DNA from: Candidatus Latescibacterota bacterium
GTDB lineage: Bacteria > Latescibacterota > UBA2968 > UBA8231
Reading direction: 5' to 3'
Assembly (NCBI GenBank): GCA_965248265.1
Contig: CBDFJF010000002.1
Coordinates: forward strand, 1,728,001 to 1,792,000
DNA: 64,000 nucleotides
Position numbers and translations under genes: made by a program. The first letter of the stretch is position 1. Every line of letters begins with the position of its first letter. A model generated the notes under the pieces. It had not been told where the DNA came from. It saw only the letters and a program-made list of their open reading frames with translations, and made no database searches. Shown here one piece after another: positions 1-37,616 of this stretch.

Positions 1-947
1 ACGCTGGCCGCGGTGTTGAGGGCGCTGCTCCAGGTATGGGCACTGACCTGCAGGTTGGCCGCCTCTACCAGGCGAATCGCTCTCAACGTACCGGTAATGC
101 CGTGGATCCGTCCCGGATCCATCTGTACCACGTCGACGCCATCCGAGTCGATCAGTCGGCGATACCCTTCTAACGTCCACTCCTGCTCACCGGTGCCGAT
201 CGGTGTGTTGACACCCTCGCGCAAGAGGCGGTGTCCCTCCAAATCCCGCGGCCGCAGCGGCTCCTCCATCCAGCGCAGGCGGTAGGGTTCGAGTTCGTTG
301 AGGCGGCGGATCGCTGTCTGGGGATCCCAGATGCCCTTGTGGCCGGGCATGTCTGCGACCAGTTCGATGTCGTCCCCGATGGTCTCGCGTATGCGGCGTA
401 TCATCTCGAGATCCGCTTTTCGGTTCTGGCCGAACATGGCGTCGGGGCGCATGCCCCATCCCGCCTTGACCTGGATGTAACCCTGGTCCTTCATCCAGGC
501 GAACTCGTTCACGCTCCAGTCGATGTCGTCGAAGTCGAAGATGATGGAGGCCATGGCGACGACACGATTACTGATACGACCGCCCAGGAGGGTGCACACC
601 GGTACGCCGAAGTGCTTGCCGGCCAGATCCCACAGGGCCATGTCGATGGCACTGACTGCAAAGGCGGCGATCCCCTGTGTTCCGTACCACCAGCAATGAT
701 CGAGCATGAGGTTCCAGAGACGCTCGACGTCTTCCGCGTTTTCGCCGACCAAGAGTGGAGCGAAGCCCTCATCGATGATGGTGGTCGTGGCTTTGGCGGA
801 CTCACGCATTTGCGAGATGCATTCGCCCCAACCGACGAGGCCGCACTCCGATTCGATACGGGCGAGGTTGATGCAGCGAAGAGCGCCCTTGTAGTGAGGC
901 TCCGGGGCCAGCAGCGGGTAAGCCTTGATTTCCTTTATTTTCAACAT
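1..947 (-). CDS. Mandelate racemase/muconate lactonizing enzyme (enolase superfamily), 3' end runs off the window
   Basis: Manual translation from ATG 947: MLKIKEIKAYPL...GLVGWGE...SAIDMALWDLAGK...LLGG...WMEEPL...PIGTGE...VVQMD; no stop before position 1, so it is absent from the ORF track. Confidence 0.9.
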   Translation of the reverse strand, partial: MLKIKEIKAYPLLAPEPHYKGALRCINLARIESECGLVGWGECISQMRESAKATTTIIDEGFAPLLVGENAEDVERLWNLMLDHCWWYGTQGIAAFAVSAIDMALWDLAGKHFGVPVCTLLGGRISNRVVAMASIIFDFDDIDWSVNEFAWMKDQGYIQVKAGWGMRPDAMFGQNRKADLEMIRRIRETIGDDIELVADMPGHKGIWDPQTAIRRLNELEPYRLRWMEEPLRPRDLEGHRLLREGVNTPIGTGEQEWTLEGYRRLIDSDGVDVVQMDPGRIHGITGTLRAIRLVEAANLQVSAHTWSSALNTAAS

Positions 948-1276: not shown

Positions 1277-2347
1277 ATGGTTGATAAAGCACGAATCGGC
1301 ATCATCGGCACTGGTTGGTGGGCGACGACGGCCCATTTCCCATCGGTGAAGGCGCATCCCAAGGCAGAGCTGGTGGCGGCGGCGGATGTCCGCCCCGACA
1401 TCCTGGCCAAAGCGGCGGAGAAGTACGATGTAGCAAACACCTATACCGACTACGGGCAGATGCTGGACAAGGAGGATCTGGACGGTGTCGTGGTCGCGGT
1501 CTGGCATGCAGAGCATTTCGAGGTTGCCCGCACCTGCCTGGAGAACGGCCTGCACGTCATGCTGGAGAAGCCGATGGTGCTGCGGGCAGCGCATGCGCGC
1601 GAGCTGGTGGATGTGGCAACGAAGAACAAGCGTGAGCTCATCATCGGCTATCCCTGGCACTTCACCCCGCACACCCTCAGAGCCAGGGAGGTTGTGCAAT
1701 CGGGCGAATTGGGCCGGGTTCTGTTCGTCAACAGCATCTTCGCCTCGGCGGTGCTCCAGTTTCTGCGCGGCGAGGACAAGACCTACGAGGCGGTGTTCGG
1801 GTACCCGGTGGTCGGACCGGGCGATGTCTACGCCGATATCGAGAAATCCGGCGGCGGCCAGGGGCACCTGCAAGTGACGCATTCGGCGGCGCTATCCCTG
1901 TTCATTACCGGGCTCAAGCCAGTGTCGACGATGGCGATGATGGAGAATCTGGATGTCCATACCGACGTCGTGGACGCCATGGCCGTGCGCTTGGACAATG
2001 GCGCTCTGGCCACCGTGGGCAGCATCGGCACGGTGCGTCCCGGAGATGGCGACATTCTCACCACCCAGATCGTCTGCGAGGACGGACAGGTCACCCTGGA
2101 TTCAATCGGGGGTACGGGGTCAATCCGTCACAAAGATCAGAGCCTGGAGACCTTCGAGCCGCTGGCCGAGGAAGCCATCTACCCGATGCAGGTGACGGCG
2201 GCGAATCTCGTCGACGTGATTACCGGTGATGCCGCCAACGGCTCTCCGGCCGAGGTTGGATGGCGAGTTGTAGAATTGCTGGATTCGGCCTACCGCTCAG
2301 TCGCCGACAGTGGGCGCCAGGTGCAGGTGGAGGAACTCTACGACTGA
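1277..2347 (+). CDS. Gfo/Idh/MocA family oxidoreductase
   Basis: RIGIIGTG Rossmann start, HVMLEKP motif, SGELGRV, GGGQGHLQVTH. Confidence 0.92.
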   Translation: MVDKARIGIIGTGWWATTAHFPSVKAHPKAELVAAADVRPDILAKAAEKYDVANTYTDYGQMLDKEDLDGVVVAVWHAEHFEVARTCLENGLHVMLEKPMVLRAAHARELVDVATKNKRELIIGYPWHFTPHTLRAREVVQSGELGRVLFVNSIFASAVLQFLRGEDKTYEAVFGYPVVGPGDVYADIEKSGGGQGHLQVTHSAALSLFITGLKPVSTMAMMENLDVHTDVVDAMAVRLDNGALATVGSIGTVRPGDGDILTTQIVCEDGQVTLDSIGGTGSIRHKDQSLETFEPLAEEAIYPMQVTAANLVDVITGDAANGSPAEVGWRVVELLDSAYRSVADSGRQVQVEELYD

Positions 2348-20351: not shown

Positions 20352-21583
<1,232 letters not shown>

Positions 21584-29387: not shown

Positions 29388-29608
29388 TCAGCTTTAGTCT
29401 TCGCTTGAGAGCCGATTGCTCCAGCTGTTACCGCAGATGGGAAGCAATCTTGGTAATCAAGCGTTCACTTTGGGGCAAGGAGCAAAATTAAAGTGCAAAA
29501 CCATCGCTGAAGAGACAATGACGTCCCCCTCTTGGTGATATGTGTCACAGTACCACGACGCGCAGCAAGTAGGTTTGACACCTAACCTCTAACCTGGCTG
29601 GTGTAATT

Positions 29609-30454
29609 GTGAACGGGGAGCAGCTAGATCCTCTGGTAGCTCAGTACTTTCAAGAAATCGAAAATTCTGTAGGACTTCCCAGCAAGACTGAAATTGTCCT
29701 TGCACAGCGTATTCAAAGCGGTGATGCGCATGCTCTGGGGCTATTGGTCAAAGCGAATCTTCGATTTGTTGTGAAGATCGCCAAAGACTATAGAGAGAAA
29801 GGTCTGCCGTTTTCCGATGTTGTTAGTGCAGGAAATCTGGGATTGATTATCGCGGCGAAGCGCTTTGACGGTACGAAGGGGTTCAAGTTCACGTCCTATG
29901 CTGTCTGGTGGATCCGACAGTCTATCCTATTGGCTCTAGCTGAGCAACCTAGAATAGTCCGATTGCCATTGAACAAGATCCATGAATTGTCTCAGTTCAA
30001 TAGAGTTGTGAGCACATTAGAGCAGAAATTAGGTTGCGCGCCTGTCTTGAGCGCCGTTGCTGAGGAGATGGTGGTCAAAATTGAAGATCTGAACACTCTT
30101 CTCATTCGAGCGAAGTCCCCTAAATCGTTAGATCAGCCATGTGACAACGAAGTCTCAAAGGCATGTCTCATCGACCGGATCATAGACGACTCAGCAGTCA
30201 CTGACGTGGGGTTGCTTCAGGCCGAGTTGAGAGAGCAGATTGTTGGTGCCATGAGTACTCTGACGGAGCGAGAAGCTGAAGTGATCAGCCGACATTACGG
30301 CCTCAATGGGTATGAGCCAATGACGCTGCATGAAATTGGTATCACGTTCGGTCGATCGCGTGAAAGGATCCGACAAATCAAGGAGAAGGCATTAAAGGTG
30401 CTGAGACGTTCGTTCAAAAGAGCTGGAGTTTCTGATTCGGACAAAGACATCTGA
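29609..30454 (+). CDS. sigma70-family RNA polymerase sigma factor (RpoD/RpoS-like, no region 1.1)
   Basis: ANLRFVVKIAK, KFTSYAVWWIRQ, SRERIRQIKEKAL. Confidence 0.92.
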   Translation: MNGEQLDPLVAQYFQEIENSVGLPSKTEIVLAQRIQSGDAHALGLLVKANLRFVVKIAKDYREKGLPFSDVVSAGNLGLIIAAKRFDGTKGFKFTSYAVWWIRQSILLALAEQPRIVRLPLNKIHELSQFNRVVSTLEQKLGCAPVLSAVAEEMVVKIEDLNTLLIRAKSPKSLDQPCDNEVSKACLIDRIIDDSAVTDVGLLQAELREQIVGAMSTLTEREAEVISRHYGLNGYEPMTLHEIGITFGRSRERIRQIKEKALKVLRRSFKRAGVSDSDKDI

Positions 30455-30557
30455 GATCCCTGCCGAGATAGGTGTGCAAAAAGAGAAGGGATGAATGTAC
30501 AAATGGTGAGGAGCTTGATGGCGGTGTAACCTCTCTCGTGGTGATGCAAGTCTAAGG

Positions 30558-30809
30558 TTGTTTGTTGCTAGAGTGTCTCAAGTGAAAATTTTCAGTCAGT
30601 CTGAGAAAAATCTCTTCTTCACTCAAGAGAGGAATGTCATACAGTGGTATCTGGAGAGCGGGGCGTGGCAATATCGGAGTGTACAGAAGCCGGACGGTCG
30701 CCTGCTGGCGGAAGGGTCTGCGAGGCAGGTAATGGATGAGCTTAAGAGCTCTTTACCTCCTGATCTTCAAGACCAAATCAAAGGCTTCTATTGGCTGCGC
30801 GAAGTTTGA
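30558..30809 (+). CDS. Hypothetical protein
   Basis: 83-aa ORF in an AT-rich patch, start uncertain. Confidence 0.35.
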   Translation: MFVARVSQVKIFSQSEKNLFFTQERNVIQWYLESGAWQYRSVQKPDGRLLAEGSARQVMDELKSSLPPDLQDQIKGFYWLREV

Positions 30810-31140
30810 CCAACGAACTCGATAGTTGGCGCCCTGGGGATCGCTGAATCGCGTTGGACAGCCATACAGATTCATGAGGAGAGCTGACCATTCGCTTCGA
30901 ACGCCTCGAGGCAAACTTTTGGCCATTGAACGCCGCAACCCTACCGCATCTTGTCGCCCTCCCGGACACCTGACTTTGCCTTAAAATCCAGAAGATGCGC
31001 ACAAACGTCCCGTAGTAGTACGGAGCCGAGTGCACTTCGTTGTCTCTTTAATCGGATATTTACAGAATTTGTAGGTGCAAACCTAGGAAATGACTTGGTT
31101 ATGACTATCGATTTGGGTTGATTTTCTGAAGATAGGGAGG

Positions 31141-31210
31141 ATCATCAGGGGTGCCCGAGGTTTCGAAACCCTTCGAACCTGAACTGGGTAATGCAAGCGG
31201 AGGGAGATAG
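31141..31210 (+). ncRNA. TPP-riboswitch-like aptamer (variant)
   Basis: AGGGGTGCC...ACCC..GAACCTGAACTGGGTAATGCAAGCGGAGGGA follows the TPP consensus, but UGAGA is replaced by UUCGA. Confidence 0.7.
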
Positions 31211-31237
31211 GCAGTGACATAAAATGTTTGCGTGACC

Positions 31238-31272
31238 GCGCCGCTTTCCCAACGGGAAGATGGCGCTTCTTT
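31238..31272 (+). terminator. Intrinsic-terminator-like hairpin, possible riboswitch expression platform
   Basis: GCGCC-GCTTTCCC-AAC-GGGAAGA-TGGCGC followed by TTCTTT. Confidence 0.6.
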
Positions 31273-31353
31273 CATGTAAAATGCAATATGAAAAGAGTGG
31301 GAGTGGAGCACTCGTATTTTGATGGTTGTTAAGAAACGGAGGCAGATGATAGC

Positions 31354-31581
31354 ATGGAAGCAGGAGCTATGGTTGCCGCTCTGGTGATGATACTTATGGT
31401 GGTTGTGGGGAAGATCGTTACAAGTAGATTGCTGGGTTTTATGGAGGGCCAAATTGCTAATAGGGAAGTTGATTCGAAAGACAAGGGTATCTTGATGGCT
31501 GATGAGCACTTCAAGCTAATAGTCCATGTAAACGGTGAAGGAGACCTCCATGGAAAAAAGCGACCTGGCGCGCCGGATTAA
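31354..31581 (+). CDS. Possible small single-TM protein
   Basis: GGAGG 11 nt upstream, N-terminal hydrophobic helix; overlaps the next ORF. Confidence 0.3.
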   Translation: MEAGAMVAALVMILMVVVGKIVTSRLLGFMEGQIANREVDSKDKGILMADEHFKLIVHVNGEGDLHGKKRPGAPD

Positions 31582-31750
31582 GGCGGCCAAAGGAGATATG
31601 GTCAAGTTCGATCGATCTGCTCTACTGAAGATCTGGGGCATGCTACTCAACCAGGATGAGCTCGTAGAGAGAGTCAGACGGTTCTGCCTCGAGCACGGAT
31701 TCGAATGGCGGATCGACGATGTGACCAAAGAGTTTCGGATTCGTTCCTGA
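31550..31750 (+). CDS. Small hypothetical protein
   Basis: AAGGAG RBS, ATG 31550, 66 aa with protein-like composition. Confidence 0.55.
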   Translation: MEKSDLARRIKAAKGDMVKFDRSALLKIWGMLLNQDELVERVRRFCLEHGFEWRIDDVTKEFRIRS

Positions 31751-32144
31751 ATTGAGGGCGGTTGTGTTTCATAACGATGGACCAACCTCCCCCGCGCGTC
31801 GCACGACTTAGCATAAAATCTAAAAATAGCCAAAACCCAAAACACAGCTTGTGCTCTCTCGTCTGGGAGGTTTTCCTGTCGCCGTCAGATGCTCGATCTC
31901 CTCCAGGTGCTCTATCCAGCCGAGCAGGTTTCTGAGTGTCAGCGATGACTCCCCCATCCGAGCCAGGTCCGTTTACGCTTCCCAATGGTACGACGGCGGT
32001 GGAAGCACAGAGTTGGGGCCGGATAAAAAGCGTGTTCAGGCGGTAGGAACTATTTATGCTCGGATCCTCACTTTCATCTTGCAAGTCGAGCACCGTGAGG
32101 TAAGTTGTGTGCTCCCAGGACACACTCCCTTGAAGGAATTCGCC

Positions 32145-32480
32145 ATGGCTCAGTCCAGCCCCTCAGCACCGACAAGTTTGTGGTGGGCGCCAGAGACACC
32201 TATCCAATACTCCACAGTGAATGACCTGAGAATTCGCTACATCAAGACCGGGCAGGGGCCGAACCTAGTGCTGTTGCACACCCTTAGGACGCAACTGGAT
32301 ATCTTCCACAAGGTCATTCCCCTGTTGAGCGACTCGTTACCATTCACGCGCTTGACTATCCAGGACACGGCTACTCCGACATTCCCCGCACGGACTACAC
32401 GTCACAGTTCTTCGCCGAATCGGTGGAAGCATTCCTGGAGGATAGAATGATCACAGACGCCAAGGTAGCCGGTGTTTCCG
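32145..32480 (+). pseudogene. Alpha/beta hydrolase fragment, frameshifted and truncated
   Basis: GQGPNLVLLH..., 1-nt loss near 32338, then TIHALDYPGHGYSD...KVAGVS in another frame; homology ends at the nucleophile Ser. Confidence 0.75.
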
Positions 32481-32505
32481 CCGACGAAAAGAGGAGTACA
32501 GATCA

Positions 32506-33276
32506 ATGCTGATGACGAACATTCTGACCCTCCAGGTCCAACCTCGGCAGGGACAGGCCTTCCCGGTCGAGGTGGAGGTGCGACGGATCGGCTGTTCGCG
32601 CCACGCGGCGCGGGACGTAGAGGGAATGAAAGCCAGCATCGCAGAAACCCGCTCGAAAGGTTACGCGATGCATCCGCACGCAGGTGTCTGCTTTCGCAGT
32701 CGTTATCTGCTCACCAATGAAGCCCGCATCGAGGTGCAGGGAGCGCAGACCTCGGGAGAGGTGGAATTCGTCGCCTTACGTCACGGCGGCGAGATCTACA
32801 TATCCGTTGGCAGTGACCATAACGACCGCAGTCTCGGGGATATGACTACGACCATGTTGGGTAAGGTCTACGATACCGCCAAGATGAAGCAACTGGCACC
32901 TGCGGTCGTCGCCTCCAAGGCCTGGTTGTACGACGAAGTCAAAGATCACTGGGACGACATCGTTCTGCGCAGCTACCTAACGGTGGACGGCAAACGGACG
33001 ATGCTCCAGGAATTCCCGTTGAGCAATCTGCTGGATCTGAATTTCTACATGGACAAATGCCCATGGTTTGAGGAGGAGGGGAGTGTACTGTTCGGCGGAT
33101 CGAGTTCACTGGCACCCGGTGTGCCGGGCCACGTCTACCAGGGTCAGGAAACCATGGATGGGGTTTACTTCGCGCCGGACTTCCATTGCGAAATGGTGGA
33201 CCCGGTCCTGGATCGGACTCTGACCCACTCATATGAGGTTCTGGCGCTGGAGGGACCTGGATCCCTAGGTCTGTAG
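32506..33276 (+). CDS. DUF2848-like (FAH-fold) protein
   Basis: TSGEVEFV, VGSDHNDR, HWDDIVLRS, DPVLDRTLTHSY; GAGGAG RBS. Confidence 0.75.
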   Translation: MLMTNILTLQVQPRQGQAFPVEVEVRRIGCSRHAARDVEGMKASIAETRSKGYAMHPHAGVCFRSRYLLTNEARIEVQGAQTSGEVEFVALRHGGEIYISVGSDHNDRSLGDMTTTMLGKVYDTAKMKQLAPAVVASKAWLYDEVKDHWDDIVLRSYLTVDGKRTMLQEFPLSNLLDLNFYMDKCPWFEEEGSVLFGGSSSLAPGVPGHVYQGQETMDGVYFAPDFHCEMVDPVLDRTLTHSYEVLALEGPGSLGL

Positions 33277-33482
33277 GGAGATGCACGCAGCGTTTCGAAC
33301 TCGTGCTGGGGATGGGGGGCCGTGCCGGGGCGCCGGTTGACATCTGAGCATTAGCCGCACACCACTTGACCGGGACTCCCGATAACCCGTTTTATAACCA
33401 CTACACATTGCGCTACATAATGTATGAAGGTATCCAATTGTCGGGGAGGAACAAGATTCAGGTTGAGAGAGTGAGACAAGCG

Positions 33483-36130
33483 ATGAAATGGACATTGGCA
33501 GTGGTAGCATTGTTGATAGTGGGGCGGGCGTGGGCAGAGGGTACGGCGCTTTCACCTACGGCACACCGGACGGTTCCGACGGACCGTCCGAGCGAGAATA
33601 TCGCCCTCGGGGTGAGCTACACTATGGAGCCGAGGCCGAATTACAGGCTTTGCACTGACCCTGGTGATTCCGAGCAACTGACGGATGGGGTCTACACGGA
33701 GGGCTATTTCTGGGCGCAGCTATCGACCGTGGGTTACTCGGAAAAGACACCTTCGATGGTGACCCTGGACCTGGGTGAGGTGAAACCGATACGAGGGGTG
33801 TCCTACCACACGGCGGGGGGGTTTGCGAGCGTGAGGTGGCCGTTGATGATTCGCATCCTCGTGGCAGGTGCGGATAAGGAGTTTCATGAGATTGGTGACT
33901 TGATACAATTGAGCGAGGAACAGCACGGCCCGCTCGCGCCGCTGAAGGCGACCGATGCCATGTGGGCCTTGGACGGCATGAGTTTCAATCAGGCCGAGAT
34001 TTATCATCACTACAACCTGAACCGGGATCGCTACCCGGACGAGATGACCCCCGAGCTGCGTCAGCAGATCCTGAGCGATCTCTACGAGGAACGCGCTGCG
34101 ACCTATGGGACGTATCGCTACTGGACGGACCAGTTGCGGACTCACGGGCGCTATGTCAGCCTGGTTGTGTGGAACGAGCCGTACACCTTCGTGGACGAGA
34201 TCGAGGTCTACGCGGGAGAGCCGGAGTGGGTGGATGAGCCGCTGCCGGGACCGTCCGTCGCGGACGTGAGCACCTATGCACGCCAGCTCGCTATCCAGAA
34301 GGGGATCCGGACCCGCTTGGTGCGGGACATCGAGGCCCTGCGGCAGACGGCCACGGAGGAGGGTATCCCGGTTCAGACACGAATTGATGTGCTGGGCGAG
34401 CTGACATCCGTAGAAGGGAATTTGGGGCAGGCCAGTGCGGCGTTCGGGGATGACTTCGAAGCCGTGCTGCCGCTGAATGCGTGGCACGAACGGGTGCTGC
34501 GCACGCAGGCGTGGCTCTGGCGCGCCAGGGGTATGGAGCCACTCACGTTCTGGCGCTCGAATCTGTGGGATCCGCTTCCCCTCATCGGCACGCCGGACAC
34601 AGCGGCGGAACTGGCCGTCGACGTGCATCTGATGCGGAAGGAACACCGCGCTGCTGCGTTCAATGTGAGCAACAGCAGCGACGAGGCGATGCAGGTGACA
34701 TTCCGGCTGAGCGGGCTGCCCGAAGGCGAGAATCCAGAGTATGTGACCGTTCACGAGGTGGCGTGGACGGACACTCGGTCCGGGACACCGGTGGCGGCGG
34801 CCCTGCCCGAAGTTGCTGCAGAGACCGGTCTGTACACGGTCTCCGTGCCCTCTGGGATGACGCGGCAGGTATGGCTGACCTTCCATCCGGTGGACGTGGA
34901 GCCGGGCACCTATGAGGGCGAGGTCGTCGTGGAGTCTGTGCCCGGGGGCAGGCGGTTTCCGTTGCGCATGCACCTGTATCCCCTGGATTTCCCGGAGCAA
35001 CAGACGCTCCACTTTGGCGGATGGGACTACACGGACCGGATCGGTTCCAGCTCCCGCTTGATAACAGAGCAAAACCGGTTGCCGTTCATCGAGCACGTGC
35101 GCGAACACCTCGTCGACTCGCCGTGGGCCACAAAACTGGCGCTGCCACGCGGCACCCACGATGAGACCGGGGCGATGACGGCGCCACCCGCCACCGGCCA
35201 CTTCGACGCGTGGATCGATCTGTGGCCGGATGCCGCCCAGTACATGGTGTTCGCCAAGGTGGGCAGCAAATTCGAGTCGTGGCAAATGGGTACACCTGAA
35301 TTCAATACCGCAGTCAAGGCGTGGGTGACCTTCTGGGCGCAGTACATGAAGTCAAAGGGATTGCAGCCGGAGCAGTTCGCGCTGCTGCTGGTGGATGAGC
35401 CCGACGAGCCGCATCAGGACGAGCGCATTCTGGCGTGGGCGAAGCCGATCCGCGAAGCGGACACCGGAGTCCGCATCTGGGAGGATGTGAACCATCACAA
35501 TATGGACGACGCGAATCAGGACATGATCGACGCGTGCCACGTGTTGAGCCCGAACTATCATGCCTTCCTGAGACGGGGCGAAGACTATCGCAACTACTTC
35601 TTGAGAAAGCGTGATCAAGGGATAGCGCTCGAATTCTACACGGCGTGGACGGGTCGGGTTTTTGATCCGTACGGGGGCCGGATCATGGCCTGGACGAGCT
35701 GGCGCTACGGGGCGGAGGCCATTTACATGTGGTCGCTGAGCGACACCGCGGGCGCTTCATCGTGGAACGAGTACCTGGCCTTGAAGAGCACCTATGCGCC
35801 ATTGTTCATCGACAGGGACTCGATCACGGCTGGCAAGCACCTCGAGGCAGCACGGGAAGGGATCGAGGACTACGAGTACTTCGCCATGTTGACCGGGCGA
35901 TCCAACAGGCGTCTGCTCAGGGAATGACAGGTCCGGCGGTGGAAGAGGCCCGTCAGCTGTTGGCGAGCCTGCCGGCCAGGGTCTGTGATGCGGCGGGCCA
36001 CACGGATCAGCTGGACGAAGACCACCCGTTGGGCGGCCTTCACTGGCTGAACGAGAACGTCGACCGCACTCTGGCGGACGAGGCGCGAATTCAGGTGTTG
36101 GCGGCGTTGACGAAGCTGGCGCTGCACTGA
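33483..36130 (+). CDS. Large secreted DUF4091/glycoside-hydrolase-like protein with apparent 1-nt frameshift near 35890
   Basis: Signal peptide MKWTLAVVALL, discoidin-like N-terminus (VTLDLG, FVDEIEV), LVDEP, REGIEDYEY; the C-terminal helix continues in the frame of ORF 35729-36130. Confidence 0.75.
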
Positions 36131-36813: not shown

Positions 36814-37119
36814 CTAGTCGCTGCCGAGTTTGGTCTCGACGCTGCTGACCTTGTCCGCCATCGTCTGCTCTCTATCAGTGCGCGTGCCGAACCTGAGAGT
36901 CGCCGAGATCCTGGGAGCGCCCATGCGGTGAATCTCCTCGTGGCAACTTCTGATGGCGGCGAAGACCTCGTCCCATTCACCTTCGATGTTGGTTCCATAG
37001 GCGTGCAATTGAGGATTGAGTCCGGCGTCTTCGAGGATACGTTCGCAAGCTGCCACGTACTCCGACACCGAGACCCCAACACCCAGCGGCACGACGCAGA
37101 AGTCGGCGATCACCTTCAT
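36814..37119 (-). CDS. MTH1187/UPF0045 thiamine-binding protein
   Basis: MKVIADFCVVPLG..SVSEYVA..LHAYGTNIEGEWDEV..RTDR; ATGA overlap with the upstream gene. Confidence 0.9.
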   Translation of the reverse strand: MKVIADFCVVPLGVGVSVSEYVAACERILEDAGLNPQLHAYGTNIEGEWDEVFAAIRSCHEEIHRMGAPRISATLRFGTRTDREQTMADKVSSVETKLGSD

Positions 37120-37616
37120 AGGGGTCCTCCAGCCTCTTCGATTATTCGAGCAGCCAGCGTGTCGACACCGGTGCCGTCGATTTGCACCGCATCGTCGCCT
37201 TTGCGTAAGGTGATAGATTCTCCGTCTCTGTGCTCGAGTTTGTTCAGCAAATCGCTGGCGACGTAAATCGGCGCCTGCATGCGCACGGCCAGGCACATGG
37301 CATCGCTGGGACGACAGTCGATTTGACGCACTCCGTCCGTTTGTGCGATGTAGAGGATGGCGTAGAACGTATCGTCTACTAGTCGCTCGATTCTGACCTC
37401 TCTCAAGGTGCCACCCAACTCACGCACGATGAGGGCCATCAGATCGTGAGAAAGCGGCCGCATGACGGGGATGTCTCTGAGACCGCAGATGAGAGCGTAG
37501 CCTTCGGCCGGGCCGATGGCGATCGGCACGAAGCGATCGGACTCACCATCCAGCAGGACGACCATGCAGCGGTCACCGGCAGTCTCAACGATGTCGAAGA
37601 TGGAGACCTCCTTCAT
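37116..37616 (-). CDS. Bifunctional nuclease family protein (DUF151)
   Basis: PIAIGPAE, RPLSHDL, DCRPSDA. Confidence 0.92.
   Translation of the reverse strand: MKEVSIFDIVETAGDRCMVVLLDGESDRFVPIAIGPAEGYALICGLRDIPVMRPLSHDLMALIVRELGGTLREVRIERLVDDTFYAILYIAQTDGVRQIDCRPSDAMCLAVRMQAPIYVASDLLNKLEHRDGESITLRKGDDAVQIDGTGVDTLAARIIEEAGGPL

Follow-up and report, generated by a model that had tools for sequence, protein, structure and literature searches.

Here we examined a 64,000-nucleotide stretch of DNA from a Candidatus Latescibacterota bacterium (contig CBDFJF010000002.1, positions 1,728,001 to 1,792,000), hereafter referred to as the window, and focused on an RNA element at 31137..31222 on its plus strand that resembles the thiamine pyrophosphate (TPP) riboswitch. 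Judged by its sequence, the element is a homologue of the TPP riboswitch and a damaged extra copy of it, and it probably represents a decaying paralogue of the riboswitch that the lineage carries elsewhere rather than a sensor of a new ligand. This reading draws on its homology to the Rfam family RF00059, a series of defects in its helices and conserved loop, its uniqueness among the genomes searched, the poor folding predicted for it and the absence of added conservation in a close relative. The initial annotation of the window, which was made from the letters alone, had offered two readings, a riboswitch with switched specificity and a decaying TPP switch; the defects, the outlying score, the folding and the conservation pattern fit the second.

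The string on which the annotation was based is present letter for letter at 31148-31205 (+). Infernal aligned 31137-31222 to model positions 1-105 of RF00059 with a score of 42.2 bits (E = 6.6e-7 in a search of 601 bases and 1.9e-6 in one of the entire 7.3-Mb genome), and at such an E value per genome the resemblance reflects homology rather than chance. The gathering score of the family is 54.3 bits, and no TPP riboswitch was matched in the window at that threshold, at which an ALIL pseudoknot was the only Rfam match; thus, the proposed likeness stands as homology, but the score is too low for the element to count as a family member. The covariance model left out the whole P3/J3-2 segment (P denotes a paired and J a joining region), setting aside 31154-31165 as 12 inserted bases against at least 17 consensus positions, so that the score rests on GGGGUG, ACCC, J2-4, P4, P5 and CG-N-AGGGA. 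The other Rfam families gave chance-level matches only in 30900-31500 (E of at least 2.3). A tRNA or transfer-messenger RNA at the UUCGA motif was also considered and ruled out, as ARAGORN detected neither in the window. Across 76 genomes of the family, RF00059 had 79 matches at E ≤ 0.01, of which 78 scored 61.0-78.7 bits and the element was the sole one below the cut-off. The canonical TPP riboswitch of the same genome lies on another contig (G000:C1:223021-223120, minus strand, 62.4 bits), upstream of a gene for a TonB-dependent receptor.

The pyrimidine-sensor arm departs furthest from the consensus where the ligand would be read. In the TPP riboswitch, J3-2 reads 5'-U39-GAGA-A, in which the pyrimidine is hydrogen-bonded by G40 and stacked on by G42 and A43, and an A-minor contact links A41 to G18-C48 (PMC2018614, PMC3764141); conservation exceeds 95% at U39-A43, U59, G60, C77, G78 and A80 (PMC3764141). 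What the annotation assumed about G40, G42 and A43 agrees with both papers. The conserved U39-A43 T-loop is absent from the element, where the first of two TTCGAA hexamers places UUCGA (31162..31166, +) at the site of UGAGA, with a U as the equivalent of G40 and a C as that of A41. This placement follows from alignment to canonical aptamers with a short P3 from relatives of the class, which read GGGGUGCC-GAAA-GGC-UGAGA-ACAC-ACCC and lead thiC; against these, the annotated parse (GCC-CGA-GGU, then UUCGA for UGAGA) holds. By comparison, CUGAGA is present in 44 of 44 distinct canonical aptamers from relatives.

The surrounding helices are similarly reduced. The 5' arm (31148..31172, +) comprises P2 (GGGG/CCCU) around a degenerate P3/J3-2, in which P3 has at most three pairs, one of them G-U, with a 3-nt loop, and contributes 0.4 kcal/mol. 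By-eye reading gives a linker of 2 nt in J3-2 between UUCGA and CCC versus at least 5 nt in all 44 canonical relatives; the element therefore lacks both the stable P3 and the normal-length J3-2 linker of RF00059 members. Folded alone, the arm adopts a plain hairpin (-7.9 kcal/mol) whose distal stem is CGA/UCG. The 5' strand of P1 (UCAUC, 31142..31146, +) pairs with 31206-31211 (GAU-A-GG) through five pairs and one bulge, with a duplex energy of -2.1 kcal/mol, and a terminator-like hairpin is present downstream; P1 in canonical relatives is a helix of the CCGUU/AACGG type.

The hexamer TTCGAA offers a simple account of how the loop was lost. It occurs 19 times in the window, and the two copies in the element, at 31162 and 31172, lie 10 nt apart; the chance of a second copy within 30 nt is about 0.02 by a rough estimate. 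The second copy (31172..31177, +) is the J2-4 sequence typical of the lineage (CCCUUCGAACC). Given this spacing and the rarity of the hexamer, the simplest origin of UUCGA, described in the annotation as a tRNA-type loop, would be that P3/J3-2 was overwritten through local duplication or rearrangement. Because TTCGAA is palindromic, the two copies pair with each other, and 31158-31180 is predicted to form a 9-pair hairpin (-8.4 kcal/mol) in both the minimum free energy (MFE) and centroid folds, which sequesters J2-4 and the 5' strand of P4. The competing GGUU-UCGA-AACC hairpin noted in the annotation is thus real and larger than described. A second helix of nine pairs (31191-31199/31225-33) appears in the same two folds. 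When the 5' arm folds alone, U63-C64-G65 pair with C56-G57-A58; since these bases are paired in either the CGA/UCG stem or the TTCGAA hairpin, the pentamer is not a free loop in the predicted folds.

We further compared the ensemble pair probabilities of the TPP-type helices in the element with those in 40 canonical aptamers from relatives. The element had pair probabilities of 0.02 for P2 (canonical median 0.87, minimum 0.05), 0.00 for P4 (median 0.96, minimum 0.13) and 0.00 for P5 (median 0.99, minimum 0.82), and its MFE was -16.7 kcal/mol versus -22.5 to -53.4 kcal/mol in the canonical set. Forced into the TPP-type structure, with the P4 pairs offset by one base, it evaluates to about -3 kcal/mol. 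The fold energy of 31130-31290 was no better than that of shuffled sequences (z = -0.54).

The P4/P5 arm (31178..31203, +), which forms the pyrophosphate sensor, is better preserved in sequence. CCU/AGG is intact, as are the G that follows CCU and the CG beyond P5, and the residues on the pyrophosphate side (U59, G60, C77, G78 and A80) are all present as CCUG...GCG-G-AGGGA, aligned with a posterior probability of 1.0. A 19-base core of this half, CCCUUCGAACCUGAACUGG, consists of the same bases in the canonical copy of the genome. The single P5 mismatch reported in the annotation is real: CUGG/CAAG places a G-A opposition (31186/31195) in a 4-pair helix that is Watson-Crick and fully paired in 44 of the 44 distinct canonical aptamers. 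The model also flags a P4 mismatch at 31181/31200; this position is U, A, C or G among the canonical aptamers and is therefore not counted as a defect. The pyrophosphate half, described in the annotation as nearly intact, is not predicted to fold.

No second aptamer of this kind was recovered. The species-genome search, covering 185,579 genomes, used a pattern of GGGGTG followed by TTCGA at 1-8 nt from CCCT-NN-GAACCTGA, and returned 48 matches, of which 45 keep TGAGA and three lack the TPP 3' half; none places UUCGA in the position of UGAGA. Of these 45, 44 represent ordinary aptamers that carry an additional hairpin in J3-2, and the remaining one (L058) has a chance TGAGA and no 3' half. A tighter pattern leaving no room for UGAGA had no match in the JGI metagenomes, and the other TPP matches of the 76 family genomes include no UUCGA variant. 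The annotation had proposed looking for the variant in other genomes and metagenomes, and that search yielded no true example. The species-genome and JGI scans may leave out the genome of the window itself, and because the patterns need exact GGGGTG, TTCGA, CCCT and GAACCTGA, divergent variants could be missed. With blastn, 31100-31300 matched only the P4/P5 cores of canonical riboswitches in 60 relatives, and no orthologous locus was found outside the closest relatives.

These searches also yielded several observations on canonical TPP riboswitches. The extra hairpin in J3-2, between CUGAGA and ACCC, is a conserved feature of the canonical aptamers of many Planctomycetota metagenome-assembled genomes (contigs L023, L025, L028, L030, L033, L039, L040, L048, L052, L053, L055, L057 and L060). 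One genus of the class carries two canonical TPP riboswitches arranged back to back with about 550 nt between them. In L008 they lie at 843-938 (-) and 1492-1581 (+); one of them, whose minimal P3 has three pairs and a GAAA loop, precedes thiC, and the second precedes a glycine-oxidase-like gene. The same layout is found in L009, L011, L017, L019, L021 and L022. A relative within the class (G109) has eight RF00059 matches versus two in its congeners. In the family itself, canonical pairs on the same strand about 2.4 kb apart occur in G035:C708, G067:C51, G078:C1 and G082:C1, which shows that riboswitches have been duplicated in this family.

One close relative was recovered from public runs, a 2474-nt contig from one sample (runs X5 and X6, with identical assemblies; the study differs from the one that probably yielded the window), which is about 94% identical to the window over 31050-31461 and 31530-31800; a further run, X7, covers 31553-31703 only and not the element. 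In its aptamer, a C is inserted after 31142 and another after 31145, 31160 is deleted, and 31161 T>A and 31167 A>G are substituted. The deletion of 31160 and the change at 31161 remove two of the three P3 pairs proposed in the annotation. In the terminator, 31240 is deleted and 31241 C>A and 31253 C>T are substituted, and the predicted energy of the region is -14.3 kcal/mol versus -22.6 kcal/mol in the window. None of the changes is compensatory in this one relative of about 94% identity, the P3 and terminator changes included. The differences number five events in the 86-nt aptamer, two in 87 nt upstream and nine in 131 nt downstream, and the aptamer is no better conserved than its flanks. 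The relative keeps UUCGA, which is therefore older than the split of the two strains.

Beyond P1, a terminator-like hairpin occupies 31238..31275 (+), with its stem at 31238-31266 followed by an interrupted U tract (UUCUUUCAU). It has 12 pairs, one bulge and a CAAC loop (31230-31280, -22.6 kcal/mol) and begins 26 nt past the last base of P1, close to the approximately 30 nt given in the annotation. A simple terminator scan did not flag 31238-31275, and no promoter-like site was detected in 30400-32000, in a scan for which the host's own promoter type was not identified.

A low-GC islet (29400..31800) surrounds the element and also holds a sigma-70 paralogue and small open reading frames (ORFs). 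The GC content of the islet is 0.47-0.50, rising to 0.53 at 30,600-31,000, versus 0.57-0.65 in the flanks, and it has the look of a lineage-specific or acquired segment. The sigma-70 paralogue (29609-30454) is divergent, with a best match of 59% identity among 167 other genomes of the phylum, and a family-type copy sits elsewhere in the genome. On the plus strand downstream, as the annotation had observed, there are only tiny ORFs without a known family and no thiamine gene. One, of 75 aa (31354..31581, +), has a hydrophobic N-terminus and doubtful coding status; it has only weak matches (E of at least 1e-4) in other genomes of the family (7 of 75), and upstream of these homologues (nine loci) there was no Rfam match at E 0.1. 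In the relative, 68 bases of its 3' part are skipped and 242 others stand instead, and it is thus unlikely to be a conserved gene. The other ORF (31550..31750, +; 66 aa, or 71 aa from a GTG at 31535) encodes a lineage-restricted small protein, absent from all 75 other family genomes searched and with three homologues in ENA assemblies (85-92% identity; two of 66 aa and one of 105 aa); a scan of JGI metagenomes with the alignment of this protein gave 352 pattern matches, none of which was confirmed. The 75-aa and 66-aa ORFs and an 83-aa ORF upstream have no family in Pfam, NCBIfam or PHROGs, the 83-aa ORF having a lone PHROG match at E 0.048. Gene context, which the annotation had suggested testing, thus gave no clue to a ligand, as the ORFs are lineage-restricted and the 75-aa ORF is not conserved in the relative.

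Further from the element, a gene with a PF01910 thiamine-binding-protein domain (36814-37296, minus strand, E = 5.5e-33) lies 5.5 kb away; being on the opposite strand and at this distance, it is not controllable by the element in cis. A flavin-reductase-like gene adjoins it. No remnant of the genes at the canonical TPP loci was found in 30000-34000 (tblastn, 777 ORFs), so that of these loci only the riboswitch is represented. A frameshifted and truncated alpha/beta-hydrolase-like remnant lies at 32100..32512 (+), where the frames 31830-32450 and 32288-32512 (stop to stop) carry consecutive N-terminal hydrolase-like pieces that end before a DUF2848 gene; it has no Pfam match at E 0.01, and the family name is read from its residues. 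An 853-aa ORF at 33366-35927 (+) has no Pfam or NCBIfam match. At 20630-20746 (+), an ALIL pseudoknot (RF01497, 101.2 bits), the frameshift-stimulating RNA of IS3-family insertion sequences, indicates an insertion sequence element about 10 kb upstream of the TPP-like element.

For the decay that we favour, the course of events may have been as follows. An aptamer with its terminator platform would have come to lie in the small low-GC, lineage-specific islet and would then have lost most of its pyrimidine-sensor arm, with P3 reduced to at most three pairs and the J3-2 linker to 2 nt. A second copy of the adjacent palindrome TTCGAA would have been written over the UGAGA T-loop; a G-A mismatch would also have been gained in P5, with P1 left only marginal. 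The resulting RNA presumably responds to no ligand any more, TPP included. If it is made at all, it would fold into the TTCGAA and terminator hairpins whatever the ligand, acting at most as a constitutive, leaky terminator before the small lineage-specific ORFs.

Several points weigh against this account. Nearest-neighbour folding leaves out Mg2+, tertiary contacts and ligand, and since the model ignores such contributions, the folding comparison is supporting evidence rather than proof. The conserved residues that PMC3764141 assigns to the pyrophosphate side, namely the G that follows CCU, the CG beyond P5 and the A in AGGG, are all kept. By eye, GGGAGA-UA-GGC (31202-31212) could form an antiterminator with 31242-31250, as in a working OFF switch. 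The relative retains UUCGA, the whole P4/P5 arm and the 3' strand of P1 unchanged, with 72 bases (31168-31239) identical; its three 5'-arm changes all fall at unpaired positions of the plain-hairpin fold, and its first C insertion, again by eye, converts a U-G pair of P1 to C-G. The comparison moreover involves one relative only, a very close one, from a contig with a depth of 3.3-4.9, on which two assemblies agree. With a single relative at about 94% identity, the points for constraint are likewise not significant. Selection inferred from the 72-base unchanged stretch was considered and set aside, because by a rough estimate such a stretch is not significant at about 5% divergence, although selection would leave a stretch of this kind as well; the upstream flank of the relative also holds an unchanged stretch of 61 bases.

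Three other explanations were weighed against decay. It is unlikely, in our assessment, that the hairpins persist in the role of a leaky terminator or structured leader that senses nothing, serving either low basal expression of the small ORFs or the end of the upstream sigma-factor transcript. Such ligand-independent reuse would fit the strong hairpin with a U-rich tail at 31238-31275, the presence of the TTCGAA hairpin and the 31191-31199/31225-33 helix in both the MFE and centroid folds, the unchanged 31168-31239 in the relative and the conservation of the downstream 66-aa ORF in three relatives (85-92%). However, the terminator stem of the relative has weakened from -22.6 to -14.3 kcal/mol through uncompensated changes, the fold energy of 31130-31290 is no better than that of shuffles (z = -0.54), and 30400-32000 holds no promoter-like site of the kinds scanned for. 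Very unlikely is a riboswitch that still responds to TPP or thiamine through a minimal pyrimidine arm, in which a UUCGA T-loop would stack on the hydroxymethylpyrimidine (HMP) ring and the downstream ORFs would be off when TPP is abundant. T-loops in general have a U at position 1 and an A at position 5. UUCGA fits this pattern and keeps a G and an A for stacking at the positions of G42 and A43 (PMC2018614), the pyrophosphate-side residues and a terminator platform are present, and canonical aptamers with a 3-pair P3 exist in relatives of the class. These points are set against the change of both the G40 and A41 equivalents, the 2-nt linker, the loss of P3 in the relative, the failure of P4/P5 to form in predicted folds, the absence of a thiamine gene downstream and the presence of UGAGA in all 44 aptamers of relatives.

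The switch of specificity favoured in the annotation, in which the pyrophosphate arm and a rebuilt 5' arm would sense another diphosphate-bearing metabolite and control the small ORFs, seems to us highly improbable. The relative preserves both UUCGA and the P4/P5 arm, and riboswitch-derived variant classes exist, thiamin-sensing TPP variants among them (PMC5473149). The remaining evidence does not support the proposal: the pattern scans of neither the species genomes nor the JGI metagenomes provided a further example, no covariation was seen, the gene context offers no clue, the proposed helices are not kept in the relative, where P3 is lost, the linker is 2 nt, and the predicted folding is poor, with the pyrophosphate half not predicted to form. 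We give equally little credence to a lineage-restricted TPP-aptamer derivative that retains the pyrophosphate-sensor arm, in which a tRNA-type UUCGA loop or a plain hairpin replaces the pyrimidine pocket, and which would serve as a terminator-type switch for the 66-aa protein in response to a different diphosphate-bearing metabolite, pyrophosphate or a nucleotide; the UUCGA, P4/P5 and P1 3' strand kept in the relative are compatible with it. If decay is the correct reading, the element is an ordinary case of a riboswitch paralogue losing its ligand pocket once stranded without a thiamine gene. Its importance would depend on a ligand being found for it. It also calls for caution, as below-cut-off TPP matches with seemingly interesting substitutions at ligand contacts can be relics.

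Compared with RF00059, the element retains the order of P1, GGGG(U)G, ACCC, J2-4, P4, P5 with a GUAAUG loop, and CG-N-AGGGA, but differs in its UUCGA loop, minimal P3, 2-nt linker, P5 G-A mismatch, marginal P1 and lack of a downstream thiamine gene. UUCGA, or more broadly UUCRA, gives the letters of the tRNA T-loop; there is no evidence that 31162-31166 folds as a T-loop. We know of no description of a natural aptamer derived from the TPP riboswitch whose pyrimidine pocket is changed, and the literature searched contained no T-loop-substituted TPP aptamer, which is not firm evidence of absence from print. Thiamin-sensing TPP variants with a mutated P4-P5 core do exist (McCown et al. 2017, PMC5473149) and, like the element, are TPP-aptamer derivatives that depart from the consensus. 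They are numerous, and their pyrophosphate pocket is changed while the pyrimidine sensor is kept; in the element, it is the pyrimidine sensor that is changed, and it is found in one lineage only. The riboswitch for HMP pyrophosphate (HMP-PP; the thiS motif; Atilho et al. 2019, PMC6478431) is likewise a thiamine-pathway sensor with an intrinsic terminator but has an unrelated, terminator-embedded aptamer and accompanies thiS and other thiamine genes. No riboswitch of the HMP-PP type reached the thresholds in Rfam scans of the window and of 30900-31500. The canonical TPP copy of the same genome shares with the element a terminator hairpin after the aptamer and the identical core CCCUUCGAACCUGAACUGG; unlike the element, it has an 8-pair P3 (GGCUCGCA/CGCGAGCC region), CUGAGA, a paired P5, a P1 of the CCGUU/AACGG type and a clean terminator with a 7-U tail.

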